A stretch of DNA of 64,000 nucleotides from an uncultured Chlamydiae bacterium (GTDB lineage Bacteria > Chlamydiota > Chlamydiia > Chlamydiales > Parachlamydiaceae), in contig CAVWGN010000001.1 in assembly GCA_963754655.1 (NCBI GenBank), forward strand, positions 2,144,001 to 2,208,000. The letters run 5' to 3'. This document shows, piece by piece, positions 9,865-40,683 of this stretch. The stretch's first letter is position 1; each line of letters starts with the position of its first letter. A program made the position numbers and the translations under genes. The notes under the pieces were generated by a model, which did not search any database, was not told the DNA's origin, and was given only the letters and a program-made list of their open reading frames with translations.

Positions 9865-11914
9865 TCAAGCGCGATCTTGCTGAACAGCAGCCAAGACAAT
9901 TTCTTGATCACTTTGCAAGCTCTCATCTGCAAACTCAAGAGCCAAGCCATCTTGCTGAACGGCAGCCAAGACAATTTCTCGATCACTTTGCAAGCTCTGA
10001 TCTGCATATTGAAGAGCGCAGCCATCTTGCTGAACGGCAGCTAAAACAATTTCTCGGTCATTTTGAAAGCTTTCATCTGCAAACTCAAGAGACCAGCCAT
10101 CTTGCTGAACGACAGCCAATACAATCTCTCGATCTTTTTTAAAGCTTTCATCTGCATATCCAAGAGCCTCGCCATCTTGCTGAACGGCAGCCAAGACAAT
10201 CTCTCGATCTTTTTTAAAGCTTTGATCTGCATAGTAAAGAGCCCAGCTATTTTGCTGAACGGCAACCAAGACAATCTCTCGATCTTTTTTAAGGCTTTCA
10301 TCTGCATATTGAAGAGCCAAGCCCTCTTGCTGAACAGCAGCCAAGACAATCTCTCGATCTTTTTTAAGACTTTTATCTGCATATTCAAGAACCATGCCAC
10401 TTTGTTTAACGGGCCGCCAAGACAATCTCTCGATCTTTTTTAAGGCTTTCATCTGCATAGTAAAGAGCATAGCCATTTTGCTTAACGGCAGCCAAAACAA
10501 TCTCTCGATCTTTTGTAAGACTTTCATCTGCATACTGAAGAGCCAAGCCCTCTTGCTGAACAGCAGCCAAGACAATCTCTCGATCTTTTTTAAGGCTTTC
10601 ATCTACATATTCAAGAGCCACGCCACTTTGTTGAACAGCAGCCAAGACAATTTCTCGATCTTGTTTAAAACCTTTATCTACAAAGGCAAGAGCTCTGCCA
10701 TCTAGCTGAACGGCAGCTAGGACAAACTCTCGGTCTTTTTTAAGGCTTTCATCCGCATCTAGAAGAGCCTGAACATCTTGATAAACAGCATCTAAGACAA
10801 TCTCTCGATCTTTTTTAAGGCTTTCATCTGCAAACTTAAGAGCCATGCCATCTTCCTGAACGGCAGTCATGACAATTTCTTGATCTTTTTTAAAGCTTCC
10901 ATCTGCATATTCAAGAGCACTGCCAGCTTGCTGAACGGCAGCCAAGACAATCTCCCGATCTTTTTTAAGGCTTTCATCTACATATTCAAGAACATAGCCG
11001 CTTTGCTGAACGGCAGCTAAGACAATCTCCCGATCTTTTTTAAGGCTTTCATCTGCAAACTTAAGAACCCCGCCATCTTCCTGAACGGCAGCTAAGACAA
11101 TTTCCCGATCTTTTTTAAGGCTTTCATCTACATATTCAAGAGCCAAGCCATCTTTCTGAACAACAGACAAGACAATTTCTCGATCTTTTTTAAGGTCATC
11201 ACGTATAGCAAAAACAGAACTTCCAAAACACTGACTAATGTGCATCAAAATTTCTTTATCATTAAAATTGGGAATTTTTTTAAGGGTAGAGATAATAGAG
11301 CTTCCTGCCTGATCCCATTCCTCTATATATTCTCGACCACCATAATAAAGTTTAATAAATTCATTTTTGATAATGGTTAATCTTTGCTCATCATTACCTA
11401 ATATAAGAGAGTTTAAAATAGACAATTGCTCTTCCGCTACCTGCCGAATGTTTTTATTGGCGCTCCTTTTGCAAACTTCAGGATTCCATAGATAGCGATC
11501 CAAAAGAGAAAGAAATAAGCTCTTTGCGTAAAATAATTGTGAATCAACCATTAACAAATGCCTAAATCCTTCTTTTTGGCAAAATAGGAATCGATCTATC
11601 AGTTTAAATTCCTGAGGGGTAAAATGCTCCTTTTGCTTAGTTTTGATACACTCTTGAGGAAATTTGATAGTGGATGGACGATGCACTGTAAGTTGAAAAA
11701 GAGTCCGTAGCAATGAGATACAAGGATTCTTCTCAAAAATGTGTTTCCATTTTTTACAGGTCAGTAAAATAGAAGAAATGTCATGCATAGAGCAGCTTTG
11801 ATTGACAACCTGATCAAAAATAATTCCTAACACATCCTGAGGAATTAATATGTCTAAGAAAGCTTCATTTGTAGTGTTTGGCATTGTAGGTGAATGAAGA
11901 AAGAGAGTTTTCAT
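9865..11914 (-). pseudogene. array copy 1, F-box-like/DUF4116-repeat gene split by a 1-nt frameshift
   Basis: ORFs 10406-11914 and 9865-10602 continue the same repeat register; extra G near 10411-10413 (AACGGGCCG versus AACGGCCG in other repeats). Confidence 0.8.
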
Positions 11915-12072
11915 AATTGTTCCTTAAAGCAAGGGATTAGTATTACCCGATTTTTTACAATTGTAAAAAGTTGAGATTAAAGATTTGCATTAAAAAATAT
12001 TTTTAATTTAAAATAGTTACATCTTTTAATTTTTATAGATTTATAACATAAATTAAGAAATTTAGTACAAAA

Positions 12073-12190
12073 TTAAGTTTTGTTTGGATAAGACCTTCAA
12101 GAATAAAAGTGATCAAACTGAACTTTCCTTGGAAAACCTTATGCCATGCTTCCCCCTGGCTTGTATTTCTTGGGAAAAAAGCTTCAAAAA
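12073..12190 (-). pseudogene. internally deleted remnant of the waaC-like 3' end
   Basis: Matches 40841-41046 (TTCCTTGGAAAACCTTATGCC, GGCTTGTATTT) with the middle missing. Confidence 0.75.
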
Positions 12191-12197
12191 TTGAATG

Positions 12198-13796
12198 TCA
12201 AGCGAGATCTTGCTGAACGGCAGCCAAGACAATTTCTTGATCACTTTGCAAGCTCTCATCTGCAAACTCAAGAGCCAAGCCATCTTGCTGAACGGCAGCC
12301 AAGACAATTTCTCGATCACTTTGCAAGCTCTGATCTGCATATTCAAGAGCGCAGCCATCTTGTTGAACGGCAGCTAAAACAATTTCTCGGTCATTTTGAA
12401 AGCTTTCATCTGCAAACTCAAGAGACCAGCCATCTTGCTGAACGGCAGCCAAGACAATCTCTCGATCTTTTTTAAGGCTTTCATCTGCATATCCAAGAGC
12501 CTCGCCATTTTGCTGAACAGCAGCCAATACAATCTCTCGATCTTTTTCAAAGCTTTCATCTGCATATTGAAGAGCATATCCATCTTGCTGAACGGCAGCC
12601 AAGACAATCTCTCGATCTTTTTTAAAGCTTTCATCTGCATATCCAAGAGCCTCGCCATCTTGCTGGACGGCAATCAAGACAATTTCTCGATCTTTTTTAA
12701 AGCTTGCATTTGCATATTGAAGAGCCAAGCCATCTTGCCGAACGGCAGCCAAGACAATCTCTCGATCTTTTTTAAGGCTTTCATCTGCATATTGAAGAAC
12801 CCAGCCCTTTTTCTGAACGGCAACTAAGACAATCTCTCGATCTTTTGTAAGGTTTTCATCTGCATAGTAAAGAGCATTGCCATCTTGCTGAACGGCAGCC
12901 AAGACAATCTCTCGATCTTTTTTAAGGCTTTCATCTGCAAACTCAAGAAATTTACCATCTTGCTGAACGACAGCCAAGACAATCTCTCGATCTTTTTTAA
13001 AACTTTCATCTGCATAGAAAAAAGCCCTGCTATCTTGCTGAACAACCGTTAAGACAATGTCGCGATCTTTTTTAAGGCTGTCACGTATATCAAAAACAGA
13101 ACGTCCAAAAAACAGACCAATCTGCATAAAAATTTCTTTATCATTAAAAGTGGGAATTTCTTTAAGGGTGGAGATGATAGAGTGTTCTGCTTCATACCAC
13201 TTCCCTGTTACTCGACCGCCACAGTAAAGTTTTTTAATAAATTCATTTTTGATAATGGTTAGTCTTTGTTCATCACTACCTGATACAAGAGAGTTTAAAA
13301 TAGACAATTGATCTTCTGCCAACTGCCGAATATTGTTATTAGCGCTCTTTTTGCACTTTTCAGGATCCCATATATAGCGATCCAAAAGACAAAGAAATAA
13401 ACTCTTCGGATGAAATAATTGTGAATCAACCATTAACAATTTTTCCAATGTTAGCTTCCGGTAAAAAAGGACTTGATCTATCAGTTTAAATTCCTGAGGA
13501 GTAAAATGCTCCTTTTGCTTAGTTTGTATACATTCCTGGGGAAATGTGATAGGGAAGGGATACTCCTCTTTAAGTTGAAAAAGAGTCTGTAGCAATGAGA
13601 TACAAGGACCCTTCTCAAAAATGTGTTTCCATTTTTTACAGGTCAGTAAAATAGAAGAGATGTCATGCATAGAGGGGCTTTGATTGACAACCTGATCAAA
13701 AATAATTCCTAACACATCATGAGGAAGTAATGTGTCTAAGAAAGCTTCGTTTGTAGTGTTTGGCATTGTAGGCGAATGGAGAAAAAGAGTTTTCAT
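12198..13796 (-). CDS. array copy 2, F-box-like/DUF4116-repeat protein
   Basis: LPHDVLGIIFDQV...SILLTCKKWKHI plus 25-aa repeats; AAGGA RBS. Confidence 0.9.
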   Translation of the reverse strand: MKTLFLHSPTMPNTTNEAFLDTLLPHDVLGIIFDQVVNQSPSMHDISSILLTCKKWKHIFEKGPCISLLQTLFQLKEEYPFPITFPQECIQTKQKEHFTPQEFKLIDQVLFYRKLTLEKLLMVDSQLFHPKSLFLCLLDRYIWDPEKCKKSANNNIRQLAEDQLSILNSLVSGSDEQRLTIIKNEFIKKLYCGGRVTGKWYEAEHSIISTLKEIPTFNDKEIFMQIGLFFGRSVFDIRDSLKKDRDIVLTVVQQDSRAFFYADESFKKDREIVLAVVQQDGKFLEFADESLKKDREIVLAAVQQDGNALYYADENLTKDREIVLVAVQKKGWVLQYADESLKKDREIVLAAVRQDGLALQYANASFKKDREIVLIAVQQDGEALGYADESFKKDREIVLAAVQQDGYALQYADESFEKDREIVLAAVQQNGEALGYADESLKKDREIVLAAVQQDGWSLEFADESFQNDREIVLAAVQQDGCALEYADQSLQSDREIVLAAVQQDGLALEFADESLQSDQEIVLAAVQQDLA

Positions 13797-13827
13797 AATT
13801 GTTCCTTAAGACAAGTGATTAGGATTA

Positions 13828-13857
13828 CTCGACTTTTTACAATTATAAAAAGTCGAG
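13828..13857. promoter_or_regulatory. conserved palindrome ~30 bp upstream of array gene starts (candidate operator)
   Basis: CTCGACTTTTTA-caatta-TAAAAAGTCGAG; variants at the same position upstream of other copies (about 15824, 21506, 34447). Confidence 0.5.
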
Positions 13858-13956
13858 ATTAAAAGTTGTATTAAACAAAATATTTTTTAATTTACAAACA
13901 TTAAATCTTTTAGTTTTTATAGATTTATAACATAAATTAATAAATTTATTACACTA

Positions 13957-14172
13957 TTAAATTTTGTTTAGATAAGACCATCGAGAATAGAAGTGATCAA
14001 ATAACTAGCGCCGCTCTAACTGCTTGATGCAGGCTCCGTTTGACAGGCTCGTAAGATAGCGTAGCATCTTTTCAAATGTTTTTGCCCATAAAAGCCACCT
14101 GAAATTTCCTTGGAAAGCCTTATGCCACGCTCCTCTCTGGCTGGTATTTCTTCTTGGAGAAAAAGCTTCAAG
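13957..14172 (-). pseudogene. remnant of the waaC-like 3' end
   Basis: Aligns by eye to 40841-41046; translated traces such as ILRACQT versus ILRTCQT. Confidence 0.85.
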
Positions 14173-14181
14173 AATTGAAGG

Positions 14182-15792
14182 TCAAGCGCCATCTTGCTTA
14201 ACAGCAATCAAGACAATTTCTTGATCATTTTGAAAGCTTTCATCTGCAAACTGAAGAACCCTACCATCTTGCTGAATGGCAGCCAAGACAATGTCTCGAT
14301 CTTTTTTAAGGCTTTCATCTGCATATTTAAGAGCCCAGCCATCTTGCTGAACGGCCGCCAAGACAATTTCTCGATCACTTTGCAAGCTTTCACCTGCAAA
14401 CTCAAGAGCGCAGCCAGCTTGCTGAACGGCAGCTAAAACAATTTCTCGATCACTTTGCAAGCTTTCATCTGCATAGTGAAGAGCCCTACCAGCTTGCTGA
14501 ACGGCAGCCAAGACAATTTCTTGATCATTTTGCAAGCTTTCATCTGCATATTGAAGAGCCCTACCAGCTTGCTGAACGGCAGCCAAGACAATTTCTTGAT
14601 CATTTTGCAAGCTTTCATCTGCAAACTCAAGAGCGCAGCCAGCTTGCTGAACGGCAGCCAAGACAATTTCTCGATCTTTTTTAAAGCTTGCATTTGCATA
14701 TTGAAGAGTTATGCTATTTTGCTGAATGGCAGCCAAGACAATCTCGCGATCACTTTGTAAGCTTTCATCTGCATATGCAAGAGCTCTGCTATTTTGCTTA
14801 ACAGCAGCCAAGACAATCTCTCGATTTTTTCTTAGACTTTCATCTGCATATTCAAGAGCCCAGCCACATTGATTAACAGCAGCTAAGATAATCTCTCGAT
14901 CACTTTGTAAGCTTTCATATGCATATTCAAGAACCCAGCCATTTTGCTGAACGGCAGCCAAGACAATCTCTCGATCTTTTTTAAAACTTTCATCTGCATA
15001 ATCAACAAGAGCCCTGCCATCTTGCTGAACGACCGCCAAGACAATGTCGCGATCTTCTTTAAGGCTGTCACGTATATCAAAAACAGAACGTCCAAAACAA
15101 TGGCCAATATGCATAAAAATTTCTTTATCATTAAAATTGGGAATTTTTTTAAGGGTAGAGATAATAGAGTCTTTTACCAAAGACCACTTCTCTGTTGCTC
15201 GGCCGCCACAGTAAAGTTTTTTAATAAATTCATTTTTGATAATGGTTAGTCTTTGCTCATCACTACCTGATACAAGAGAGTTTAAAATAGACAATTGCTT
15301 CTTTGCTACTTGCCGGATGTTTTGATTGGCGCTAGTTATGCAAACTTTAGGATCCCATGAATAGCGATCCAAAAGAGAAAGAAATAAACTCTTCGGATGA
15401 AATAATTGTGAATCAACCATTAACAGTTTTTCCAATTTTTCCAATCCAAACCTTCGGTCAAATAGAACTTGATCTATCAGTTTAAACTCCTGAGGGGTAA
15501 AACGCTCCTTTTGCTTAGTTTGTATACATTCCTGAGGGAATGTGATAGGGAATGGATGCTTCTCTTTAAATTGAAAAAGAGTCTGTAGCAATGAGATACA
15601 AGGATTCTTCTCAAAAATGTGTTTCCATTTTTTACAGGTCAATAAAATAGAAGAAATGTCAGGCATAGAATGGCTTTGATTGACAATCTGATCAAAAATA
15701 ATTCCTAACACATCATGAGGAAGTAATGTATCTAATGAAGCTTCATTGGTAGTGTTTGGCATTGTAGGTGAATGAAGAAAGAGAGTTTTCAT
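14182..15792 (-). CDS. array copy 3, F-box-like/DUF4116-repeat protein
   Basis: Same architecture, 536 aa. Confidence 0.9.
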   Translation of the reverse strand: MKTLFLHSPTMPNTTNEASLDTLLPHDVLGIIFDQIVNQSHSMPDISSILLTCKKWKHIFEKNPCISLLQTLFQFKEKHPFPITFPQECIQTKQKERFTPQEFKLIDQVLFDRRFGLEKLEKLLMVDSQLFHPKSLFLSLLDRYSWDPKVCITSANQNIRQVAKKQLSILNSLVSGSDEQRLTIIKNEFIKKLYCGGRATEKWSLVKDSIISTLKKIPNFNDKEIFMHIGHCFGRSVFDIRDSLKEDRDIVLAVVQQDGRALVDYADESFKKDREIVLAAVQQNGWVLEYAYESLQSDREIILAAVNQCGWALEYADESLRKNREIVLAAVKQNSRALAYADESLQSDREIVLAAIQQNSITLQYANASFKKDREIVLAAVQQAGCALEFADESLQNDQEIVLAAVQQAGRALQYADESLQNDQEIVLAAVQQAGRALHYADESLQSDREIVLAAVQQAGCALEFAGESLQSDREIVLAAVQQDGWALKYADESLKKDRDIVLAAIQQDGRVLQFADESFQNDQEIVLIAVKQDGA

Positions 15793-16179: not shown

Positions 16180-18090
16180 TCAAGCGCCATCTTGCTCAAC
16201 AACAGCTAAGACAATTTCTTGATCATTTTGAAAGCTTTCATCTGCATATATAAGAGCCTCTCCATCTTGCTTAACAGCAACCAAGACAATCTCTCGATCT
16301 TTTTTAAGGCCTTTATCTGCAAACTCGAGAGCCAAGCCATATTGCTGAACGGCAGCCAAGACAATTTCTCGATCACTTTGCAAGCTTTCATCTGCATATT
16401 CAAGAGCATCGCCATATTGCTGAACAGCAGCCGAGACAATCTCTCGATCTTTTTTAAGGCTTTCATCTGCAAACTCAAGAGCCAAGCCATCTTGCTGAAC
16501 AGCAGCCAAAACAAGTTCTCGATCCCTTTGCAAGCTTTCATCTGCAAACTCAAGAGCATCGCCATCTTGCTGAACAGCAGCTAAGACAATCTCTCGATCT
16601 TTTTTAAGGCTTTCATCTGCATAGTAAAGAGCTCGGCCATTTTGCTGAACAGCAGCCAAGACAACCTCTCGATCTTTTTTAAAGCCTTCATCTGCATAGA
16701 GAAGAGCCCCACCATCTTGCTGAACAGCAGCCAAGACAATCTCTCGATCTTTTTTAAAGCCTTCATCTGCATATTCAAGAGCGTTGCCAATTTGCTGAAC
16801 GGCAGCCAAGACGGCAATCAAAACCATCTCTCGATCTTTTTTAAAGCTTTCATCTGCATATTTAAGAGCATTGCCATCTTGCTTAACAGCAGCCAAGACA
16901 ATCTCTCGATCTTTTTTAAAGCTTTCATCTGCATATTCAAGAACATTGCCATGTTGCTTAACAGCAGCCAAGACAATTTCTCGATCATTTTGAAAGCTTT
17001 CATCTGCAACTTCAAGAGCATAGCCATTTTGCTTAACAGCAGCCAAAACAATCTCTCGATCTTTTTTAAAGCTTTCGTCTGCATATTGAAGAGCATAGCC
17101 ATGTTGCTTAACAGCAGCCAAGACAATCTCTCGATCTTTTTGAAGGCTTTCATCTGCAAATTGAAGAACATTGCCATGTTGCTTAACAGCAGCCAAGACA
17201 ATTTCTCGATCTTTTTTAAAGCTTTCATCTGCAACTGCGAGAGCCAAGGCTTTTTGCTGAACGGCAACCAAGACAATCTCTCGATCTTTTTTAAGGCTTG
17301 CATCTGCATATTGAAGAGCCCAGCCATCTTGCTGAACGGCAGCCAAGACAATCTCTCGATCTTTTCCAAGGCCGTCATGTATAGCAAAAACAGAAACTCC
17401 GAAACACCGACCAATATGCATAAAAATTTCTTTATCATTAAAATTGGGAATTTTTTTAAGGGTAGAGATAATAGAGTCTATTACCGGAGACCACTTCCCT
17501 TTTGCTTGACCGCCACAGTAAAGTTTTTTAATAAATTCATTTTTGATAATGGTTAGTCTTTGCTCATCACTACCTAATATAAGAGAGGTTAAAATAAACA
17601 ATTGCTTTTTCGCTACTTGCCGGATGTTTTGATTGGCGCTCGATTTGCAAACTTCAGGATTCCATGGATAGCGATCCAAAAGAGAAAGAAATAAACTCTT
17701 CGGTTGAAATAATTGTGAATCAACCATTAACAATTTTTCCAATTTTAGCTCTTGATAAAGTAGGACTCGATCTATCAGTTTAAATTCCTGAGAAGTAAAA
17801 CGCTCCTTTTGCTTAGTTTGTATACATTCCTGAGGAAATGTGATAGGAAATGGATAATTCTTTTTAAGTTGAAAAAGAGTTCGTAGCAAGGAGATACAAG
17901 GATTCTTCTCAAAAATGTGTTTCCATTTTTTACAGGTCAGTAAAATAGAAGAGATGTCATGCATAGAGGGGCTTTGATTAACAACCTGATCAAAAATAAC
18001 CCCTAAAAGCTCATTAGGAATTAATGTGTCTAAGAAAGCTTCGTTTGTAGCGTTTAGCATTGTAGGTGAATAAAGAAAGAGAGGTTTCAA
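16180..18090 (-). CDS. array copy 4, F-box-like/DUF4116-repeat protein (TTG start)
   Basis: Same architecture, 636 aa; ATG replaced by TTG after the conserved AAGGAACAATT. Confidence 0.88.
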   Translation of the reverse strand: MKPLFLYSPTMLNATNEAFLDTLIPNELLGVIFDQVVNQSPSMHDISSILLTCKKWKHIFEKNPCISLLRTLFQLKKNYPFPITFPQECIQTKQKERFTSQEFKLIDRVLLYQELKLEKLLMVDSQLFQPKSLFLSLLDRYPWNPEVCKSSANQNIRQVAKKQLFILTSLILGSDEQRLTIIKNEFIKKLYCGGQAKGKWSPVIDSIISTLKKIPNFNDKEIFMHIGRCFGVSVFAIHDGLGKDREIVLAAVQQDGWALQYADASLKKDREIVLVAVQQKALALAVADESFKKDREIVLAAVKQHGNVLQFADESLQKDREIVLAAVKQHGYALQYADESFKKDREIVLAAVKQNGYALEVADESFQNDREIVLAAVKQHGNVLEYADESFKKDREIVLAAVKQDGNALKYADESFKKDREMVLIAVLAAVQQIGNALEYADEGFKKDREIVLAAVQQDGGALLYADEGFKKDREVVLAAVQQNGRALYYADESLKKDREIVLAAVQQDGDALEFADESLQRDRELVLAAVQQDGLALEFADESLKKDREIVSAAVQQYGDALEYADESLQSDREIVLAAVQQYGLALEFADKGLKKDREIVLVAVKQDGEALIYADESFQNDQEIVLAVVEQDGA

Positions 18091-18210: not shown

Positions 18211-18304
18211 AGGAGTTACGCAGTTGAACTATTTTCTCCTCTGAGTGTTAATGATTTTATCATTTGAAGCTCAGAGGAGAAAATAGTTCAACTGCTTAAT
18301 TTTT
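18211..18304. mobile_element. short palindromic insertion (MITE-like, family C)
   Basis: 26-bp perfect arms GCAGTTGAACTATTTTCTCCTCTGAG at 18220-18245 and 18270-18295; absent from the equivalent spacer of other copies. Confidence 0.7.
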
Positions 18305-18347: not shown

Positions 18348-18559
18348 TTAAATTTTGTTTGGATAAGATTATCAAGAATAGAAGTAATCAAATAACTGGC
18401 GCCTCTAACTGCTTGATGCAGGCTCCGTTTGACAGGTTCGTAAGATAGCTAGCCTCTTTCAAATGTTTTTGTTCATAAAAGCTACCTGAACTTTCCTTGG
18501 AAAACCTTATGCCACGCTCCTCGCTGGCTTGTATTTCTTGAGAGAAAAAGCTTCAAAAA
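18348..18559 (-). pseudogene. remnant of the waaC-like 3' end
   Basis: CTCTAACTGCTTGATGCAGGCTCCGTTTGACAGG block shared with 40899-40932. Confidence 0.85.
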
Positions 18560-18566
18560 TTGAACG

Positions 18567-19046
18567 TCAAGCGCGATCTTGCTGAACAGCAACCAAGACA
18601 ATTTCTTGATCATTTTGAAAGCTTTCATCTGCATATTCAATAGCCTGCCATCTTGCTGAACAGCAGCCAAAACAATTTCTCGATCATTTTGAAAGCTTCA
18701 TCTGCAACTTCAAGAGCATAGCCATTTTGCTTAACAGCAGCCAAAACAATCTCTCGATTTTTTCTTAGGGTTTCATCTGCATATTTAAGAGCTCAGCCAT
18801 CTTGATTAACAGCAGCTAAGACAATCTCTCGATCTTTTTTAAGGCTTTCATCCGCATATTTAAGAGCCAAACCATATCGCTGAACAGCAGCCAAGACAAT
18901 CTCTCTATCTTTTTTCAAGCTTTTATCTGTATATTGAAGGGCCCTGCCATCTTGCTGAACAACAACCCGGACAATTTCTCGATCTTTTTCAAGGCCATCA
19001 CATATAGCAAAAACAAAACATCCAAAACACCGACCAATCTGCATTA
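18567..19046 (-). pseudogene. array copy 5, 5'-truncated fragment with in-frame stop and frameshifts
   Basis: Starts at MQIGRCFG, contains several repeats, TGA at 18793; the N-terminal domains are replaced by palindromic element B. Confidence 0.85.
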
Positions 19047-19312
19047 GCGGCGGGTAGCCGCTTTCAGTGGGAAGCCCTGTATGAAGCGAGCTTGCGAGCG
19101 GAATGCGGGGTGTAGGCAAGATAGCATTGAGCTGCGGAAGCAGCGTAAGATCACTCACACCGCTTCCGCGGTTTATATTTTATTGATGGCTACCCCGCAT
19201 TCCACTCGCAAGCTCGCTTCATACAGGGCTTCCCACTGAAAGGGGCTACCGCCGCCCTACCATTTCGTATCGATCTGCTAAAAAATATAAACTCCCAGAT
19301 TTAATCACACTC
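19046..19312 (-). mobile_element. GC-rich palindromic element, family B copy 1
   Basis: ~70-bp inverted arms (GGTAGCCGCTTTCAGTGGGAAGCCCTGTATGAAGCGAGC...), an inner hairpin and a ~48-bp tail; reverse-complement near-copy at 39007-39280. Confidence 0.8.
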
Positions 19313-30646: not shown

Positions 30647-30836
30647 AATTGTTCCTTAATATAACGGATTAGCTTTACTTGACTTTTTACAATTTTAAAA
30701 TCGAGATCAAAAGATTATGTTAAAAAGCATTTTTTATTAAAAAAATAATTAAATTTTTTAGCTTTTATAGATTTATAACATAAATTAATAAATTTAGTAC
30801 ACTATTAAATGTTTTTACAAAAGGCCAAGGGTGTGA

Positions 30837-32684
30837 TTAAATCTGCACATTGAAAACCAAGCCACGTTGCTGAATAGCTGCCAAGAAAATCTCTCGATCT
30901 TTTTTAAGGCTTTCATGTGCAAATTGAAGAAACCTACCATCTTGCTGAACTGCAGCCAAGACAATTTCTCGATCTCTTTTAAAGCTTTCATCTGCAAATT
31001 GAAGAGCCCGACCATTTTTCTGAATAGCAGTCAAGACAAACTCTCGATCACTTTGTAAGCTTTCATCTGCAAATTGAAGAAACCTACCATCTTGCTGAAC
31101 TGCAGCCAAGACAATTTCTCGATCTCTTTTAAAGCTTTTATCTGCAAATTGAAGAGCGCCGCCATTTTGCTGAACGACAGTCAAGACAAACTCTCGATCT
31201 TTTTTAAGGCTTGCATCTGCATATTCAAAAGCCGCACCATGTTGCTGAACGGCAATCAAGACAATCTCTCGATCTTTTAGAAAGCTTTTATCTGCATATT
31301 GAATAACCCTACCACATTGCTGAACAGCAGCCAAGACAATCTCTCGATCTTGTTTAAACCTTGCATGTGCATATTCAAGAGCCCTGGCATTTTGCTGAAT
31401 GGCAGTCAAGACAAATTCTCGATCTTTTGTAAGGCTTTTATCTGCAAAGTAAAGAGGACAGCCTGCACTTTGCTGAACGGCAGTCAAGACAAACTCTCGA
31501 TCTTTTTTAAGACTTTCAGCTGCAAATTGAAAATCATAGCCACGTTGTTGAACGGCAGCCAAGACAATCGTTCGATCTTTTTTAAGGCTTGCATCTGCAT
31601 AGAGAAGAGATCCGTTATTTCGCTGAACAGCAATCAAGACAATCTCTCGATCTTTTTTAAAGCTTTCATCCGCGTATTGAAAAGCATAGCCCGCGCTTTC
31701 CTCAATGGCAGCTAAGACAATTTTTCGATCTTTTTTAAAACTTTCATCTGCATATTGAAGAGCATTACCATTTTGCTGAATGGCAGCCAAAACAATCTCT
31801 CGATCTTTTTTAAGGCTTTCATCTGCATATTCAAGAGCCCAGCCACATTTCTGAACGGCAGCCAAAACAATCTCTCGATCTTTTTTAAGGCTTTCATCTG
31901 CAAACTTAAGAGCCATGCCCTCTTGCTGAATGGCAGCCAAGACAATCTCTCGATCTTTTTCAAGGCCGTCACGTATAGCAAAAACAGAACCTCCAAAACA
32001 CCGACCAATATGCATAAAAATTTCTTTATCATTAAAATTGGGAATTTTCTTAAGGGTGGAGATGATAAAGTCTCCTGCCTGATACCTCTTCTCAGTTACT
32101 CGAACGCCGCAGTAAAATTTTTTAATAAATTCATTTTTGATAATGATTAGTCTTTGCTCATCACTACTTGATACAAGAGAGTTTAAAATAGACAATTGCT
32201 CTTCCACCACCTGCTGGATATTTTTATTGGCGCTCAATTTGCAAACTATAGGATTCCATGGATAGCGATCCAAAAGAGAAAGAAATAAACTCTTCGGATG
32301 AAATAATTGTGAATCAATTATTAACAATTTTTCCAATTTTAGCTTTCGTTTAAGTAGAAATCGATCTATTAGTTTAAACTCCTGAGGGGTAAAATGATCC
32401 TTTTGCTTAGTTTTGATACATTCCTGGGGAAATGTGATAGGGAATGGATGATCCTCGTTAAGTTGAAAAAGAGTTCGTAGCAATGAGATACAAGGATTCT
32501 TCTCAAAAATGTATTTCCATTTTTTACAGGTCAGTAAAATAGAAGAAATGTCAAGCATAGCTTGGCTTTGATTGACAACCTGATCAAAAATAATTCCTAA
32601 CACATCATGAGGAAGTAAGGTATCTAATGAAGCTTCGTTTGTAGTGTTTGGCATTGTAGGTGAATGAAGAAAGAGAGTTTTCAT
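30837..32684 (-). CDS. array copy 12, F-box-like/DUF4116-repeat protein
   Basis: 615 aa; ends NVQI. Confidence 0.9.
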   Translation of the reverse strand: MKTLFLHSPTMPNTTNEASLDTLLPHDVLGIIFDQVVNQSQAMLDISSILLTCKKWKYIFEKNPCISLLRTLFQLNEDHPFPITFPQECIKTKQKDHFTPQEFKLIDRFLLKRKLKLEKLLIIDSQLFHPKSLFLSLLDRYPWNPIVCKLSANKNIQQVVEEQLSILNSLVSSSDEQRLIIIKNEFIKKFYCGVRVTEKRYQAGDFIISTLKKIPNFNDKEIFMHIGRCFGGSVFAIRDGLEKDREIVLAAIQQEGMALKFADESLKKDREIVLAAVQKCGWALEYADESLKKDREIVLAAIQQNGNALQYADESFKKDRKIVLAAIEESAGYAFQYADESFKKDREIVLIAVQRNNGSLLYADASLKKDRTIVLAAVQQRGYDFQFAAESLKKDREFVLTAVQQSAGCPLYFADKSLTKDREFVLTAIQQNARALEYAHARFKQDREIVLAAVQQCGRVIQYADKSFLKDREIVLIAVQQHGAAFEYADASLKKDREFVLTVVQQNGGALQFADKSFKRDREIVLAAVQQDGRFLQFADESLQSDREFVLTAIQKNGRALQFADESFKRDREIVLAAVQQDGRFLQFAHESLKKDREIFLAAIQQRGLVFNVQI

Positions 32685-32693: not shown

Positions 32694-34415
32694 TTAAGCA
32701 AGCTCTAGATCATTTTGAAAAATTTCATGTGCAAATTGAAGAGCTCTCCCATTTTGCTGAATGGCAGCTAAGACAATCTCCCAATCTTTTTTAAGGCTTT
32801 CATCTGCATATTCAAGAGCATAGCCGCTTTGCTGAACGGCAGCTAAGACAATCTCCCGATCTTTTTTAAGGCTTTCATCTGCATATTCAAGAGCCCAACC
32901 ATTTTTCTGAACAGCAGTCAAGAGAAACTCTCGATCATTTTGAAGGCTTTCATCTGCATATTCAAAAGCAATGGCATTTTCCTGAATAGCAGCTAAGACA
33001 ATCTCTCGATCTTTTTTAAAGCTTTCATTTAAAAACTCAAGAGCAGTGCCATCTTGCTGAACAGCAGTCAAGACAAACTCTCGATCATTTTGAAAGGTTT
33101 CATCTGCAAACTCAAGAGCACTGCCATCTTGCTGAACAGCAGTCAAGACAAACTCTCGATCTTTTTTAAAGCTTTCATCTGCATATCGAAGAGCCAAGCC
33201 ATGTTGCTGAACAGCAGCTAAGACAATCTCGCGATCTTTTTTAAAGCTTTCATCTGCATATTTAAGAGCCAAGCCATCTTGCTTAACAGCAGCCAAGACA
33301 ATCTCCCGATCTTTTTTAAAACTTTCATCTGCATATTCAAAAGCCCAACGACATTTCTGAACAGCAGCCAAGACAATCTTCCGATCTTTTTTAAAGCTTT
33401 TATCTGCATATTGAAGAGCCGAACCAGCTTGCTGAACAGCAGCCAAGACAATCTCTCGATCTTTTTTAAAATTTTCATCTGCATATTCAAGAGCCCTACC
33501 ATTTTGCTGAACGGCAGCCAAGACAATCTCTCGATCTTTTTTAATGCTTTCATCTGCGTTTATAAGAGCCCAGCCATTTTGCTGAACGGCAGCCAAGACA
33601 ATTTCTCGATCTTTTTTAAGGCTTTCATCTGCAAGCTTAAGAGCCATGCCATCTTGCTGAATGGCAACCAAGACAATCTCTCGATCTTTTTCAAGGCCGT
33701 CGCATATATCAAAAACAAAACGTCCAAAACATCGACTAATGTGCACCAAAATTTCTTTATCATTAAAATTGGGAATTTTTTTAAGGGTAGAGATAATAGA
33801 GTCTCCTGCCTGATACCTCTTCTCAGTTACTCGAACGCCACAGTAAAATTTTTTAATAAATTCATTTTTGATAATGGTTAATCTTTGCTCATCATTAACT
33901 GATACAAGAGAGTTTAAAATAGACAATTGCTCTTCCGCCACCTGCTGGATATTCTTATTGGCGCTCAATTTGCAAACTAGAGGGTTCCATGGATAGCGAT
34001 TCAAAAGAGAAAGAAATAAACTCTTCGGATGAAATAATTGTGAATCAACCATTAACAATTTTTCCAATCTTCGCTCTCGGTAAAGTAGGAATCGATCTAT
34101 CAGTTTAAATTCCTGAGAAGTAAAATGCTCCTTTTCCTTAGTTTGTATACATTCCTGGGGAAATGTGATAGGGAATGGATGATCCTTATTAAGTTGAAAA
34201 AGAGTTCGTAGCAAGGAGATACAAGGATTCTTCTCAAAAATGTATTTCCATTTTTTACAGGTCAGTAAAATAGAAGAAATGCCATGCATAGAGCAGCTTT
34301 GATTGACAACCTGATCAAAAATAATTCCTAACACATCCTGAGGAAGTAATGTGTCTAAGAAAGTTTCATTTGTAGTGTTTGGCATTGTAGGCGAATGAAG
34401 AAAGAGAGTTTTCAT
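32694..34415 (-). CDS. array copy 13, F-box-like/DUF4116-repeat protein
   Basis: 573 aa; stop codon overlaps the RBS of copy 12. Confidence 0.9.
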   Translation of the reverse strand: MKTLFLHSPTMPNTTNETFLDTLLPQDVLGIIFDQVVNQSCSMHGISSILLTCKKWKYIFEKNPCISLLRTLFQLNKDHPFPITFPQECIQTKEKEHFTSQEFKLIDRFLLYRERRLEKLLMVDSQLFHPKSLFLSLLNRYPWNPLVCKLSANKNIQQVAEEQLSILNSLVSVNDEQRLTIIKNEFIKKFYCGVRVTEKRYQAGDSIISTLKKIPNFNDKEILVHISRCFGRFVFDICDGLEKDREIVLVAIQQDGMALKLADESLKKDREIVLAAVQQNGWALINADESIKKDREIVLAAVQQNGRALEYADENFKKDREIVLAAVQQAGSALQYADKSFKKDRKIVLAAVQKCRWAFEYADESFKKDREIVLAAVKQDGLALKYADESFKKDREIVLAAVQQHGLALRYADESFKKDREFVLTAVQQDGSALEFADETFQNDREFVLTAVQQDGTALEFLNESFKKDREIVLAAIQENAIAFEYADESLQNDREFLLTAVQKNGWALEYADESLKKDREIVLAAVQQSGYALEYADESLKKDWEIVLAAIQQNGRALQFAHEIFQNDLELA

Positions 34416-34523: not shown

Positions 34524-34960
34524 GCTGAAGTTTTGCAAAATTAATTAATTCAAGTTGAGACAAGTTTTAGAGCGTTCATTATATCTGAATTTTGGCATGG
34601 TTCAATTGAAGGTAACATGTTTATGCCGTCCTTTCAGGACTCGATGTCTTGTTGATAGAACCCAGGCCTCCGCTTCGCTGCGACCTGGGCTGTAACATGA
34701 CGGCCCTTCAGGCCTTAACAAAAAGACGATTTAGGGACTATAGCAGAGGGACTTAAACATCTCTTGTTAAGGCCTGAAGGGCCGTCATGTTATAGCCCAA
34801 GTCGCAGCGAAGCGGAGGCCTGGGTTCTATCAAAAAGACATCGAGTCCTGAAAGGACGGCATAAACATGTTACCTTCAATTGAACCATGCCAAAATTCAC
34901 ATATAATGAACGCTTTAAGACTTGTCTCAACTTGAATTAATTAATTTTGCAAAAGTTCAG
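34524..34960. mobile_element. non-coding palindromic MITE/BIME-like element, family A copy 2
   Basis: Same arms as 8998-9587, two REP-like units, flanked by TAATTA at 34518-34523 and 34961-34966; paralogous spacers have a single TAATTA. Confidence 0.88.
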
Positions 34961-35242: not shown

Positions 35243-36840
35243 TCAAGCGCGATCTTGCTGAACAGCAGCCAAGACAATTTCTTGATCATTTTGAAAGCTT
35301 TCATCTGCAAACTCAAGAACCAAGCCATGTTGCCGAACAGCAGCCAAAACAATCTCTCGATCTTTTTTAAAGCTTTCATTTGCATATTTAAGAGCCAAGC
35401 CATCTTGCTGAACGGCAGCCAAAACAATTTCTCGATCACTTTGCAAGCTTTCATTTGCATATTTAAGAGCCAAGCCATCTTGCTGAACGGCAGCCAAACC
35501 AATTTCTCGATCACTTTGCAAGCTTTCATCTGCATATTCAAAAGCCATACCATCTTGCTGAACGGCAGCCAAGACAATCTCTCGATCTTTTTTAAAGCTT
35601 TCATTTGCATAGTCAAGAGCCAAGCCATCTTGCTCAACAGCAGCCAAGACAATCTCTTGATCTTTTTTAAAATTTTCATCTGCATATTGCAGAGTCGTAC
35701 CACATTGCTGAACGGCAGCCAAGACAACCTCTCGATCTTTTTTAAAGCTTTCAACTGCAAATTGAAGAGCCGAACCAGCTTGCTGAACGGCAACCAAGAC
35801 AATCTCTCGATTTTTTTTAAGACTGTCATCCGCATGGTAAAGAGCCTCTCCTCTTTGCTTAACGGCAGCCAAGACAATCTCTCGATCTTTTTTAAGGCTT
35901 TCATCTGCATAGAGAAGAGCATAGCCACTTTGCTGAACGGCAGCCAAGACAATTTCTTGATCTTTTTTAAGGTTTTCATTTACATATTTAAGAGCATAGC
36001 CACTTTGCTTAACGGCCGCCAAGACAATCTCTCGATCTTTTTTAAGGCTTTCATCTGCAAACTTAAGAGCCATGCCCTCTTGCTGAATGGCAGCCAAGAC
36101 AATCTCTCGATCTTTTTCAAGGCCGTCACGTATAGCAAAAACAGAACCTCCAAAACACCGACCAATATGCATAAAAATTTCTTTATCATTAAAATTGGGA
36201 ATTTTCTTAAGGGTGGAGATGATAAAGTCTCCTGCCTGATACCTCTTCTCAGTTACTCGAACGCCGCAGTAAAATTTTTTAATAAATTCATTTTTGATAA
36301 TGATTAGTCTTTGCTCATCACTACTTGATACAAGAGAGTTTAAAATAGACAATTGCTCTTCCACCACCTGCTGGATATTTTTATTGGCGCTCAATTTGCA
36401 AACTATAGGATTCCATGGATAGCGATCCAAAAGAGAAAGAAATAAACTCTTCGGATGAAATAATTGTGAATCAATTATTAACAATTTTTCCAATTTTAGC
36501 TTTCGTTTAAGTAGAAATCGATCTATTAGTTTAAACTCCTGAGGGGTAAAATGATCCTTTTGCTTAGTTTTGATACATTCCTGGGGAAATGTGATAGGGA
36601 ATGGATGATCCTCGTTAAGTTGAAAAAGAGTTCGTAGCAAGGAGATACAAGGATTCTTCTCAAAAATGTATTTCCATTTTTACAGGTCAGTAAAATAGAA
36701 GAAATGTCATGCATAGCTTGGCTTTGATTGACAACTTGATCAAAAATAATTCCTAACACATCATGAGGAAGTAATGTGTCTAAGAAAGCTTCATTGGTAG
36801 TGTTTGGCATTGTAGGTGAATGAAGAAAGAGACTTTTCAT
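35243..36840 (-). pseudogene. array copy 14, frameshifted in the F-box-like region
   Basis: A6 run of the TGT-AAA-AAA-TGG (CKKW) codons is A5 near 36677-36681; ORFs 36526-36840 and 35243-36640 are the two halves. Confidence 0.8.
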
Positions 36841-37193
36841 AATTGTTCCTTAAAGCTATTAATTAGTATTAATTGAGTTTTTACAAATTTAAAAAAATCG
36901 AGATTAAAATATTTTATCAAACAAAACGTTTTTAATTTAAAGACAAGTAAATTTTTAGCTTTTATAGATTTATAACATAAATTAAGAAATTTAGCACATT
37001 ATTAAATTTTGCTTAGATAAGGCCATCAAGAATAGAAGTGATCAAATAACTGGTGAAACGTCAAGCTCTTACTGAACAGTAGCCAAGGCAATCTCTCAAT
37101 CTTGTTTAAAGCGTTCATCTGCAAAGGCAAAAGCCCGCGCATTTTTCTGAACTTAACAATAGCCATGACAATCTCCTGATCTTTTTAAAACTT

Positions 37194-38783
37194 TCATCTA
37201 TAAAGCAAGAGCCCAACCACTTTTCGATCTTTTTTAAGGCTTTTACCTGCATATAGAAATTTGCCATCTTGCTGAACAGCAGCCAAAACAATCTCTCGAT
37301 CATTTTGAAATCTTTCATCTGCATATTTAAGAGCAAAGCCATTTTGCTGAATGGCAGTTAAAACAAATTCTCGATCTTTTTTAAGGCTTTTACCTGCATA
37401 TTTAAAATATTTGCCATTTTGCTGAACAGCAGCTAAAACAATCTCTCGATCATTTTGAAATCTTTCATCTGCATATTTAAGAGCATAGCCATTTTTCTGA
37501 ATGGCAGTTAAGATAAATTGTCGATCTTTTTTAAGGCTTTCACCTGCATATTTAAAATATTTGCCATTTTGCTGAACAGCAGCTAAAACAATCTCTCTAT
37601 CATTTTGAAATCTTTCATCTGCATATTGAAGAGCGCAGCCATTTTTCTGAATGGCAGTTAAGATAAATTCTCGATCTATTTTAAGGCTTTCATCCGCATC
37701 TTGAAGAATCTGGTCATCTTCATCAAAGGCAAGTAAGACAATCTCTCGATCTTTTTTAAGGCTTTCATCTGCGAATCGAAGAGCCCAGCTATTTTGCTGA
37801 ACGGCAGCCAATACAAACTCTCGATCTTTTTTAAGGCTTTCATCTGCATATTCAAGAGCACTGCCATTTTCCCGAACAGCAGCCAAGACAATCTCTCGAT
37901 CTTTTTTAAGGGTTTTATCTGCAAACTCAAGAGCCCTGCCATCTTGCTGAACGGCAACCAAGACAATCTCTCGATCTTTTTTAAGGTTTTCATTTGCAAA
38001 CTCAAGAGCCAAGCTATCTTGCTGAACAACAGTCAAGACAATGTCGCGATCTTTTTCAAGGCCGTCACGTATAAAAAAGACAGAACGTCCAAAACATCGA
38101 CCAATCTGCATAAAAATTTCTTTATCATTAAAATTGGGAAATTTTTTAAGGGTAAAAATGATAAAATCTCTTACCGAATACCATTTCTTTGTTTCCCGAC
38201 CACCACCACAATAAAGTTTTTTAATAAATTCATTTTTGATAATGGTTAGTCTTTGCTCATCATTAACTGATACAAGAGAGTTTAAAATAGACGACTGCTC
38301 TTCCGCTACCTGCCGAATGTTTTTATTGGCACTCCTTTTGCACACTTCAGGATCCCATATATAGCGATCCAAAAGAGAAAGAAATAAACTCTTCGGATGA
38401 AATAATTGTGAATCCACCATTAACAATTTTTCCAATCTTAACTCTCGGTAAATTAGGACTCGATCTATCAATTTAAATTCCTGAGAGGTAAAATGCTCCT
38501 TTTGCTTAGTTTTGATACACTCCTGGGGAAATGTGACAGAGAATGGATGATTCTCTTTAAATTGAAAAAGAATCCGTACCAATGAGATACAAGGATTCTT
38601 CTCAAAAATGTATTTCCATTTTTTACAGGTCAGTAAAACAGAAGAAATGTCAGGCATAAATTGGCTTTGATTGACAACCTGATCAAAAATAATTCCTAAA
38701 AGCTCGTTTGGAAGTAATGTATTTAAGAAAGCTTCATTTGTAGTGTTTGGGATTATAGGTGAATGAAGAAAGAGAGTTTTCAT
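37194..38783 (-). CDS. array copy 15, F-box-like/DUF4116-repeat protein with decayed 3' end
   Basis: 529 aa; degenerate frameshifted repeats continue to the ancestral stop near 37061. Confidence 0.85.
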   Translation of the reverse strand: MKTLFLHSPIIPNTTNEAFLNTLLPNELLGIIFDQVVNQSQFMPDISSVLLTCKKWKYIFEKNPCISLVRILFQFKENHPFSVTFPQECIKTKQKEHFTSQEFKLIDRVLIYRELRLEKLLMVDSQLFHPKSLFLSLLDRYIWDPEVCKRSANKNIRQVAEEQSSILNSLVSVNDEQRLTIIKNEFIKKLYCGGGRETKKWYSVRDFIIFTLKKFPNFNDKEIFMQIGRCFGRSVFFIRDGLEKDRDIVLTVVQQDSLALEFANENLKKDREIVLVAVQQDGRALEFADKTLKKDREIVLAAVRENGSALEYADESLKKDREFVLAAVQQNSWALRFADESLKKDREIVLLAFDEDDQILQDADESLKIDREFILTAIQKNGCALQYADERFQNDREIVLAAVQQNGKYFKYAGESLKKDRQFILTAIQKNGYALKYADERFQNDREIVLAAVQQNGKYFKYAGKSLKKDREFVLTAIQQNGFALKYADERFQNDREIVLAAVQQDGKFLYAGKSLKKDRKVVGLLLYR

Positions 38784-38967
38784 AATTTTTCCTTAATATA
38801 ATGGATTAGCTTTACTTGAATTTTTACAATTTTAAAAATCGAATCTAAAGATTATATTAAAAAACTTTTATTTAAAAATAATTAAATTTTTTAGTTTTTA
38901 TAGATTTATAACACACATTAAGAAATTTAGTACACTATTAAATGTTGTTTAAAGAAGGCCAGAAGAT

Positions 38968-39006
38968 TTAAATCTGCACATTGAAAGCCAAGCCATGTTG
39001 CTGAAT
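38968..39006 (-). pseudogene. array copy 16, only the last codons remain (IQQHGLAFNVQI-stop)
   Basis: Near-identical to the 3' end of copy 6 (19328-19366); abuts element B copy 2. Confidence 0.75.
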
Positions 39007-39280
39007 GGGTATGATTAAATCTGGAAGTTTATATTTTTAGCAGATCGATACGAAATGGTAGAGCGGGCGGTAGCCGCTTTCAGTGGGAAGCCCCGTATGA
39101 AGCGAGCGTGCGAGAGGAATGCGGAGTGGGCATCAATAAAATATAAACCGCGGAAGCGGTGTGAGTGATCTTACGCTGCTTCCGCAGCTCAATGCTATCT
39201 TGCCTACACCCCGCATTCCACTCGCACGCTCGCTTCATACGGGGCTTCCCACTGAAAGCGGCTACCGCCGCTCTACCATT
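39007..39280 (+). mobile_element. GC-rich palindromic element, family B copy 2
   Basis: Tail GGGTATGATTAAATCTG... followed by inverted arms AATGGTAGAGCG...CGCTCTACCATT (39054-39280). Confidence 0.8.
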
Positions 39281-39309
39281 GCCACTAACAAGAGAAATTA
39301 TTTAGAAGG

Positions 39310-40683
39310 TTAAGTTATCTTGCTGACAGCAGCTAAGATAATCTCTTGATTTTGTTTAAGGCTTTCATCTGCATATTCAAGAGCCAGACCATTTTTCTGA
39401 ACAGCAGCCATGACAAACTCTCGATCTTTTCTAAAGCTTTCATCTGCATATTGAAAAGCAGAGCCATTTTCCTCAACGGCAGCCAAGACAATGTCTCGAT
39501 CTTTTTTAAAGCTTGCATTTGCAAATCGAAGAGCACTGCCCTCTTGCTGAACAGCAATCAGGACAATCTCTCGATCTTTTTTAAAGCTTTCATCTGCAAA
39601 TTCAAGAGCCTCGCCATTTTGCCGAACAGCAGCCAAGACAATCTCTCGATCTTTTTTAAAGCTTTCATCCGCATATTCAAGAGCTAAACCATCTTGCTGA
39701 ACAGCAGTCAAGACAATCTCTTGATCTTTTTTAAGGCTTTCATCTGCATATTGAAGAGCATAGCCATCTTGCTGAATAGCAGCCAAGACAATCTCTCGAT
39801 CTTTTTTAAGGCTTTCATCTGCATATTGAAGAGCCCAGGCATTGGCTTGAATAGCAGCCCGGACAATCTCTCGATCTTTTTTTAAGCTTTCATCTGCAAA
39901 TTGAAGGGCCCTCCAATCTTGCTGCACAATACCCCAGACAATTTCTCGATCTTTTGAAAGGCCGTCATGTATATCAAAAACAAAACGTCCAAAATACCGG
40001 CCAATGTGCATCAAAATTTCTTTATCATTAAAATGGGGAATTTTTTTAAGGGTAGAGATGATAGAGTTTCTTACCTGATACCACTTTTCTGTTTCTCGAC
40101 CACTACCATAGTAAAGTTTTTTAATAAATTCATTTTTGATAAGGGTTAGTCTTTGCTCATCATTAACTGATACAAGAGAGTTTAAAATAGACAACTGCTC
40201 TTCCGCTACCTGCCGAATGTTTTGATTGGCGCTCCTTTTGCACACTTCAGGATCCCATATATAGCGATCCAAAAGAGAAAGAAATAAACTTTTCGGATGA
40301 AATAATTGTGAATCCACCATTAACAATTTTTCCAATGTTAGCTCTTGATAAAGTAGGACTCGATCTATTAGTTTAAATTCCTGAGGGGTAAAATGCTCGC
40401 TTTGCTTAGTTTCGATATACTCCTGGGGAAATGTAACAGGGGATGGGTGATTCTCTTTAAATTGAAAAAGAGTTCGTAGCAATGAGATACAAGGATTCTT
40501 CTCAAAAATGTGTTTCCATTTTTTACAGGTCAGTAAAATAGAAGAGATGTCATGCATAGCTTGGCTTTGATTGACAACCTGATCAAAAACAATTTCTAAC
40601 ACCTCCTGAGGAAGTAAAGTGTCTAAGAAAGCTTCATTGGCAGTGTTTGGCATGGTGGGCGAATGAAGAAAGAGAGTTTTCAT
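39310..40683 (-). CDS. array copy 17, F-box-like/DUF4116-repeat protein directly downstream of the intact waaC-like gene
   Basis: 457 aa; ends SKIT. Confidence 0.9.
   Translation of the reverse strand: MKTLFLHSPTMPNTANEAFLDTLLPQEVLEIVFDQVVNQSQAMHDISSILLTCKKWKHIFEKNPCISLLRTLFQFKENHPSPVTFPQEYIETKQSEHFTPQEFKLIDRVLLYQELTLEKLLMVDSQLFHPKSLFLSLLDRYIWDPEVCKRSANQNIRQVAEEQLSILNSLVSVNDEQRLTLIKNEFIKKLYYGSGRETEKWYQVRNSIISTLKKIPHFNDKEILMHIGRYFGRFVFDIHDGLSKDREIVWGIVQQDWRALQFADESLKKDREIVRAAIQANAWALQYADESLKKDREIVLAAIQQDGYALQYADESLKKDQEIVLTAVQQDGLALEYADESFKKDREIVLAAVRQNGEALEFADESFKKDREIVLIAVQQEGSALRFANASFKKDRDIVLAAVEENGSAFQYADESFRKDREFVMAAVQKNGLALEYADESLKQNQEIILAAVSKIT

Follow-up and report, generated by a model that had tools for sequence, protein, structure and literature searches.

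The window analyzed here (64,000 nucleotides; positions 2144001 to 2208000 of C1, in a genome of one 3.12-Mb chromosome plus a 35-kb contig, 38.8% G+C) carries a tandem array of genes that encode an F-box-like segment followed by DUF4116 repeats. The array consists of 15 gene units, all on the minus strand, of which 13 are unbroken and 2 are frameshifted, together with one relic (Table 1). This layout matches the 15 co-oriented paralogs that had been read from the letters of the sequence alone (here, the original prediction). The array is flanked by mazG on one side and by a GT9 heptosyltransferase gene on the other. Each unit encodes a disordered leader, the F-box-like segment, a helical middle domain of ~175 amino acids (aa), and 5 to 19 DUF4116 repeats, and the N-terminal ~240 aa are 71 to 98% identical among the 14 long open reading frames (ORFs). 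Both frameshifts fall in short single-base runs, so sequencing error is possible. An AT-rich upstream region with a ribosome-binding-like site at its end precedes 14 of the 15 units; unit 11 has lost its own promoter region. The chlamydial context assumed in the original prediction was supported by the tools used: one homologue is named from Candidatus Protochlamydia phocaeensis, and a fused glycyl-tRNA synthetase, which we take to be a chlamydial trait, is also encoded. Together with the type III locus described below, these features point to an environmental chlamydia, probably close to the Parachlamydiaceae.

DUF4116 (PF13475), whose 49-aa Pfam model spans two 25-aa units of the same repeat, was detected in 17 of the 18 scanned ORFs at 112 to 774 bits (cut-off, 24.9), the only ORF lacking a match being the repeat-less fragment at the start of unit 13. 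The identity of the repeat had thus been named correctly, as had its length: a spacing of 25 aa was measured genome-wide over 805 units (next commonest, 50 and 26). Repeat numbers, previously put at about 6 to 18 per protein, were revised to 5 to 19 per long ORF with a hidden Markov model (HMM) built from the window. Pfam matches to SpoVR_C, PipB2_N, and SelB_WHD3 inside the repeats were rejected as noise summed over repeats, with no passing stretch. With positions numbered from the D of the motif DREIV, each repeat was modeled as a 10-residue helix (positions 2 to 11), a turn at position 12, a 6-residue helix (13 to 18), and a short helix (predicted local distance difference test [pLDDT] above 90).

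Positions 12, 14, and 17 were the most variable in the repeat (2.9, 3.8, and 3.0 bits, respectively), and all 20 residues occurred at position 14, where W, Y, R, and L made up 52%. The 754 repeats yielded 360 different triplets at these positions and the 89 genes yielded 88 different strings, bearing out the earlier description of a diversified repertoire. Because positions 14 and 17 stand at i and i+3 of one helix, between the conserved A15 and L16, they probably share an outer face, judging from the predicted secondary structure. We quantified amino acid change by simple counting in 49 repeat pairs from 20 gene pairs, picked solely by the likeness of their flanking repeats. The ratio of nonsynonymous to synonymous differences (pN/pS) was 1.9, 3.0, and 2.2 at positions 12, 14, and 17, or 2.3 pooled (bootstrap over the 20 gene pairs, 1.6 to 3.3), versus ~0.6 for the other 22 positions; 5 pairs from the window only gave 3.1. 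A diversity-generating retroelement was considered and rejected, as no PF00078 reverse transcriptase was found in the genome (96.7% complete; controls matched in 3 of 14) and 30 of 84 changes at variable codons were without A.

When residues 17 to 67 were scanned alone, all 14 long ORFs matched only F-box or F-box-like models (E ≤ 1), and 5 of the 14 segments reached the PF00646 cut-off. The PF12937 cut-off was passed by two paralogs (C1:2028799 and C1:2035679), and 48 of 74 aligned paralogs gave an F-box-like match at E ≤ 0.1. F33, L50, C53, and W56 were invariant in the 74 paralogs, and P25 was kept in 72. With a profile that included distant relatives, three PDB entries matched at E ≤ 10; two were F-boxes (TIR1, E = 0.21; FBXO42, E = 1.4) and covered profile positions 7 to 44. 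AlphaFold2 models of 372 aa (pLDDT 84; predicted template modeling score 0.75) and 221 aa (pLDDT 85) placed three helices in the segment (residues 26 to 39, 44 to 52, and 54 to 62). Among 50 rows of a structural comparison (VIA), 6 covered the N-terminal part and 4 of these were F-box proteins: AnkB (Z 4.3; root mean square deviation [rmsd] 2.2 Å over 49), FBXL2 (Z 3.9; rmsd 2.1 Å over 44), FBXL17, and FBXO42. The rmsd was 2.1 to 2.6 Å for three of these four, with Z from 3.9 to 4.3. Among viral structural rows, the best 5 of 50 were F-box proteins (E = 0.2 to 0.6). The F-box scores are all weak, yet the methods agree on place and family, and from profiles and models the assignment appears supported but borderline. 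The F-box-like segment of the original prediction therefore held in the HMM scan of all 14 ORFs, but it was weaker at the PF00646 cut-off and in structural Z, which stayed near 4. A search for Skp1 in 300 genomes of the phylum gave no match, but its controls gave none either.

The middle domain (residues ~65 to 240) was confidently modeled as all-helical. It had been described as a domain of ~180 aa without a name, and it stayed unnamed after all searches: NCBIfam gave nothing above cut-off, an in-genome profile matched 0 PDB sequences, Foldseek gave no match at E ≤ 0.001, and the best VIA match (Z 5.1) was to generic helical bundles. These failed searches do not show a new fold. The ratio of nonsynonymous to synonymous substitution rates (dN/dS) was 0.48 to 0.51 for the F-box plus the first 110 middle-domain residues and 0.70 to 0.73 for residues 181 to 240, indicating purifying selection. 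Ahead of the F-box-like segment, the leader of ~18 aa is disordered in the AlphaFold2 model and carries few charges, and a transmembrane-like or hydrophobic stretch of 19 residues was found in 0 of 88 family proteins. The genome holds a type III locus (C1:2.042-2.047 Mb) with SctU, SctV, CopN-type, and CesT-type genes; a paralog array lies 4.3 kb from these genes, but as one of 24 loci it was not counted as evidence. Between them, the NEX and PEX families of other chlamydiae, as described in the available text of PMC4209131, combine an N-terminal F-box with C-terminal repeats, form tandem arrays, and carry functional type III signals; a surrogate assay showed secretion of related families (PMC4209131), and PEX families are expressed early, according to the accessible part of PMC5451489. 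We infer that the proteins of the present family may be secreted via the type III system.

The original prediction treated the 31-kb array as the system. The array was confirmed, but its scale was not: a six-frame census found 90 genes of F-box-like plus DUF4116 architecture at 24 loci, so that the window holds 15 of the 90, and a larger array, of 18 genes, lies at C1:1.399-1.437 Mb. To be counted, a frame needed repeats and at least 170 of the ~242 N-terminal positions. The 90 include 2 frames broken at the 5′ end, and the totals were 110 frames with N-terminal sequence and 1,057 repeats. The 88 normally starting members span 136 kb, or 4.4% of the chromosome, and the next largest family in the genome has 21 members (crude clustering). 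In a quick tree of 94 rows, the 15 window units formed one clade (SH-aLRT support 100), and P0044, a protein from another public contig (66% identical), nested inside the family. When copy number was compared in relatives, the 90 genes here stood against a family matched in 0 of 3 congeners in a search with a single-protein query. A paralog-profile search of 1.84 billion representatives returned 20 matches; the relatives found include P0010 (E = 1e-29), P0012 (7e-28), P0019 (2e-7), and P0020 (6e-5), all with DUF4116 behind. Weaker relatives of the same layout occur in genomes G084 and G011, the latter with four copies. A profile search of 72 genomes of the taxonomic family found nothing, but it missed the G011 and G084 relatives too, and absence is not shown by it. 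In G020, 2 of 7 F-box-like stretches noted by eye ahead of DUF4116 matched PF00646, weakly (E = 0.04 to 0.06), and one head had no match to the family profile. Together, these comparisons suggest that the architecture of F-box-like segment, middle domain, and DUF4116 is old and sparse and that its expansion is recent and local. The single divergent member P0011 (C1:124207-126213; 33% N-terminal identity, 14 repeats, basic tail resembling a nuclear localization signal [NLS]) groups with P0010 outside the expansion and is perhaps nearest to the ancestral gene. Three adjacent paralogs at C1:1719757-1723699 end in CLSF, presumably a possible prenylation-type motif.

Of 72 other genomes in the taxonomic family, 41 contain DUF4116 itself, several of them in abundance. 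Other heads ahead of the repeats were PARP-like (E = 6e-10), DUF294, LRR, and, by eye, short hydrophobic ones, in a nonrandom survey of 28 repeat-bearing frames from 20 regions among the top matches. DUF4116 would thus be a general scaffold that behaves like the LRR, TPR, and ankyrin repeats of chlamydial effectors, as these are presented in the available text of PMC4209131. Very large proteins at L094:1931-7399 (G009), L095, and L097 (G085) combine a PARP-like or DUF294 head with LRRs and C-terminal DUF4116. A second widespread head, ~80 aa long and unmatched in Pfam, contains two hydrophobic stretches; it was seen at L096, L099 to L104, and L111 (G004, G075, G082, G014, and G048), in one protein with 44 repeats. 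Three further tandem families in the same genome were noted. Myb-like DNA-binding repeats, of the eukaryotic transcription factor type, are expanded in ~7 genes at C1:1211900-1228900 (family of 11 members; PF00249 E = 4e-117, with 8 stretches in one scanned member), and a transposon interrupts one copy. Nine large TPR proteins at C1:2326000-2350000 show basic NLS-like and F-box-like stretches near the N terminus, both by eye. An LRR family with an array at C1:2510000-2528000 (14 members genome-wide) has an N-terminal segment that is hydrophobic and, judged by eye, a stretch resembling an F-box.

The origin of the window array can be followed in its spacers. The distance from mazG to the heptosyltransferase gene is 1.5 kb in congener G003, 7.2 kb in G002, and 32 kb here, and no family member lies between the two genes in G002 or G003. 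One template, which contains the end of the heptosyltransferase gene, recurs as a decayed copy (73 to 81%) in 12 of the 14 upstream regions inside the array, and 8 of these 12 copies share one endpoint (41045 to 41046). The heptosyltransferase tail in the spacers has decayed with stops, while 13 of the 15 family genes stay open. The shared breakpoint and the decayed tails lead us to infer that a single founder adjoining the heptosyltransferase gene was duplicated once with part of its neighbor and then amplified in place, unit 15 likely marking the founder position. Mosaic units were also observed: positions 11072 to 11927 and 29804 to 30659 are 99.07% identical over 856 nt, and positions 9838 to 10233 and 12171 to 12566 are 97% identical. 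The original prediction did not extend to the genome-wide family, the three diversifying repeat positions, or the origin of the array. Palindromic repeats of at least two types lie at the array edge and in spacers (Table 1; also at 18216 to 18299), and in the relic gene one of them has taken the place of the 5′ part. Between 8941 and 9865, a palindrome stands where G002 and G003 have NUDIX and hypothetical genes behind mazG, genes that are missing here. Elsewhere in the window, a serpin gene (3802 to 5049; PF00079 E = 1e-93) adjoins a CAAX-protease-like gene.

Table 1. Features of the array and its flanks, in window coordinates (minus-strand genes start at the higher number)
Feature	Position	Strand	Remarks
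mazG	8306..8941	-	Flanking gene
Long nested palindromic repeat	9000..9585	.	Left array edge
Repeat-only ORF	9865..10602	-	8 repeats, the last of unit 1, continued past the frameshift near 10410
Unit 1	10406..11914	-	502 aa, 11 repeats; 5′ 856 nt 99% identical to unit 10 (mosaic)
Unit 2	12198..13796	-	532 aa, 12 repeats
Spacer copy	13797..14174	-	77% identical to 40684..41046
Unit 3	14182..15792	-	536 aa, 12 repeats
Unit 4	16180..18090	-	636 aa, TTG start, 16 repeats
Relic	~18485..19050	-	5′-truncated; end of middle domain plus broken repeats; palindrome replaces 5′ part
Palindrome, second type	19053..19250	.	Caps relic; related stretch at 39006..39272
Unit 5	19328..21475	-	715 aa, 19 repeats; short internal duplication in middle domain
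Unit 6	21855..23453	-	532 aa, 12 repeats
Unit 7	23852..25240	-	462 aa, 9 repeats
Unit 8	25644..26801	-	385 aa, 5 repeats; unit modeled with AlphaFold2
F-box-like segment of unit 8	26613..26732	-	Residues 24-63, same place in every unit; PF00646 20.6 bits, PF12937 E 6e-5
Unit 9	27043..28629	-	528 aa, 12 repeats
Unit 10	28745..30646	-	633 aa, 15 repeats
Unit 11	30837..32684	-	615 aa, 15 repeats; starts 9 nt behind unit 12
Unit 12	32694..34415	-	573 aa, 13 repeats
Palindrome related to 9000..9585	34525..34960	.	Inserted in spacer; 197-nt arms, 96%
Unit 13	35243..36840	-	12 repeats; frameshifted near 36680 into 36526..36840 and 35243..36679
Unit 14	37194..38783	-	529 aa, 11 repeats
Unit 15	39310..40683	-	457 aa, 8 repeats; directly behind intact heptosyltransferase gene
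Spacer template	40684..41046	-	AT-rich upstream region plus last 206 nt of heptosyltransferase gene
GT9 heptosyltransferase gene	40841..41956	-	Flanking, intact
Like spacer copies	Ends at 12190, 16172, 18559, 21847, 23829, 25615, 35235		

We consider it probable that the encoded proteins leave by type III secretion and act as substrate adaptors of the host SCF ligase, with paralog-specific targets and a diversity produced by recombination and selection. The disordered leader would direct export through the type III system, and residues 24 to 63, for which an F-box fold has borderline support, would bind host Skp1. The helical middle domain may space and cap the repeats, which are modeled as a helical solenoid and on which positions 12, 14, and 17, observed to vary, would form a binding stripe at the surface. 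Host-cell proteins bound in this way would be ubiquitinated and mostly degraded. At each locus the library would have grown from a single founder through tandem duplication, and recombination between units and repeats would have reshuffled it, as observed for the window array. A bolder form of the adaptor model is conceivable, if doubtful: an antibody-like library in which ~1,000 near-identical repeats in 90 genes swap codons and blocks, making each gene a differently aimed degrader. Selection would then keep new combinations at the three surface positions, the targets could be host defense factors or proteins of co-infecting microbes or viruses, and DUF4116 would be a fourth chlamydial effector repeat beside LRR, TPR, and ankyrin.

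Several observations weigh against secreted substrate adaptors. The leader, originally called S/T/P/N-rich, is indeed rich but only moderately so, its content standing at the 89th (family) to 94th (window) percentile of a crude background of 1,558 proteins of this proteome. Nine of the 14 window F-box segments fall below both the PF00646 and PF12937 cut-offs, all full-length proteins are below F-box cut-offs, and the segment carries an insertion of 3 to 5 residues between its helices relative to TIR1 and FBXO42. Helical structures can reach a VIA Z near 4 by chance, Foldseek gave no PDB match at E ≤ 0.001, and the F-box matches in ESM Atlas (score 0.85) are a lead only. The middle domain, without a recognized fold, could carry an activity of its own. 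The three repeat positions were picked after the fact from the same data, the 49 repeat pairs come from 20 gene pairs with 5 pairs from the window, and two or three bases differ in 24 of the 54 codons that changed. Such codon changes indicate short conversion tracts, by which pN/pS is inflated; nevertheless, the tracts draw on a diverse pool whose excess diversity at these sites still requires selection.

The low F-box scores and the inter-helix insertion would also suit secreted binders with a decoy or relic F-box, which titrate Skp1 or block their targets without ubiquitination, or which act through the middle domain. Skp1 could be titrated by some 90 F-boxes of nearly the same sequence; conservation of the middle domain, which has no known fold, equals that of the F-box (dN/dS 0.48); and the DUF4116 repeats of relatives sit on other heads (PARP-like and DUF294, for example). 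We regard this explanation as unlikely, given that diversified repeats are superfluous for a pure decoy, yet the repeats diversify, and that F-box core residues are kept in 70 to 74 of 74 paralogs. The same repeat diversity bears on whether the array is mostly a neutral or selfish amplification, in which repeat-driven unequal crossing-over multiplied a dispensable gene. Such a history would fit the common duplication breakpoint, the useless sequence carried along with it, the many copies that are split or truncated, the presence of palindromes and of transposase families in this genome, and the lack of a family match in 3 of 3 congeners. This history is nevertheless improbable: 13 of 15 units are unbroken beside a stop-ridden co-duplicated heptosyltransferase tail, N-terminal dN/dS is below 1, excess amino acid change is confined to three repeat positions, and the same layout is found again in distant proteins of chlamydiae.

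Alternatively, the repeats, uniformly 25 aa long and variable at three positions, could read nucleic acids by a code, as TALE, PPR, and PUF repeats do, with the F-box an accessory. Positions 12/14 and 14/17 are weakly coupled (0.40 and 0.38 bits versus 0.25 in shuffles), and the same genome holds the tandem Myb-repeat family. On the other side, the 754 repeats, with 360 triplets and every one of the 20 residues at position 14, do not resemble a four-letter code, D/E and K/R are both abundant in the repeat frame, and the variable sites change faster than synonymous sites, which makes this reading quite improbable. That the proteins stay in the bacterium, for example as surface or defense binders with a chance likeness to F-boxes, seems very improbable: secretion is a prediction, leader composition is modest, and F-box statistics are weak, but several methods converge on the same 40 residues as an F-box and no signal-peptide-like hydrophobic stretch is present. 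An assembly artifact is the least credible explanation. The 31 kb are repeat-rich, no metagenome contig spans the array, and two frameshifts lie in short runs; nevertheless, all units differ (closest long match, 99.07% over 856 nt) and form a resolved clade, P0044 from another public contig nests inside the family, and 65 of 185 soil-metagenome contigs are at least 99% alike, in a run that is perhaps not independent. Joints in these contigs were not used because of low depth, 85% likeness, and paralogs.

The concept of chlamydial F-box and repeat families in tandem arrays is already published. NEX1a and NEX2 of Neochlamydia (Domman et al. 2014, PMC4209131), as described in the available text, share with the present family a lineage-specific expansion with tandem arrays and pseudogenes, an N-terminal F-box-like domain, a conserved unnamed linker, a variable number of C-terminal repeats, overall purifying selection, and a proposed hijacking of SCF. 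In contrast, their repeats are LRR or TPR rather than DUF4116, their linker is ~50 aa or DUF294/OTU rather than ~175 aa, and NEX1 counts 138 genes in two genomes versus 90 in one genome here (PMC4209131). Pfam found no LRR, TPR, or DUF294 in the 18 window ORFs. Excess amino acid change at three positions and mosaic genes were observed here, whereas, according to its available text, the NEX study neither supported positive selection nor found convincing recombination (PMC4209131). PEX1 and PEX2 of Protochlamydia are likewise large tandem effector families (PEX2 is a 13-gene array) with experimentally functional type III signals, but in the same text they are BTB-LRR and TPR-CHAT proteins without F-box or DUF4116 (PMC4209131). 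The alpha-solenoid model of DUF4116 in PMC8078820 agrees with the AlphaFold2 repeat model, and the accessible part of that paper does not mention a function, a partner F-box, variable positions, or an expansion in chlamydiae. The original prediction knew of no description of the F-box plus DUF4116 pairing, and none was found in literature searches (subscription papers and bioRxiv supplements were outside their scope) or in two supplementary files of PMC4209131; none of the DUF4116 papers listed, judged by title or start of abstract, concerned chlamydiae.

Three things appear new: F-box and DUF4116 are paired, three repeat positions diversify in genes that are mosaics, and the birth of the array can be traced. 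DUF4116, almost without literature, gains a testable role as a binding scaffold with three likely specificity positions, and the chlamydial ubiquitin-hijacking arsenal would extend to a new repeat type. Compared with earlier families, the present one adds diversifying selection at individual sites, genes that are mosaics, and a record from which the birth of an array can be read. Research on designed binders and targeted protein degradation may also take an interest in a natural fusion of an F-box to a 25-residue helical repeat. Outside the chlamydiae, Legionella AnkB (PDB 5k35) offers a structural parallel, its N-terminal F-box superposing on residues 18 to 71 here with helical repeats behind, but it is a single gene with ankyrin repeats, and its complex with Skp1 has been solved, whereas Skp1 binding is predicted here. 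AnkB secretion is, we assume, type IV. GALA, which we take to be a small family, is the other bacterial parallel. The GALA proteins of Ralstonia solanacearum (F-box plus LRR, type III) are bacterial F-box adaptors, and positive selection acts on their repeat surface, the proposed binding site (PMC2244805); unlike the family described here, they use an LRR scaffold in a plant host and are not known to form a 90-gene library. In its proposed way of working the present family resembles NEX1/NEX2 and GALA, but its different repeat type places it outside both.

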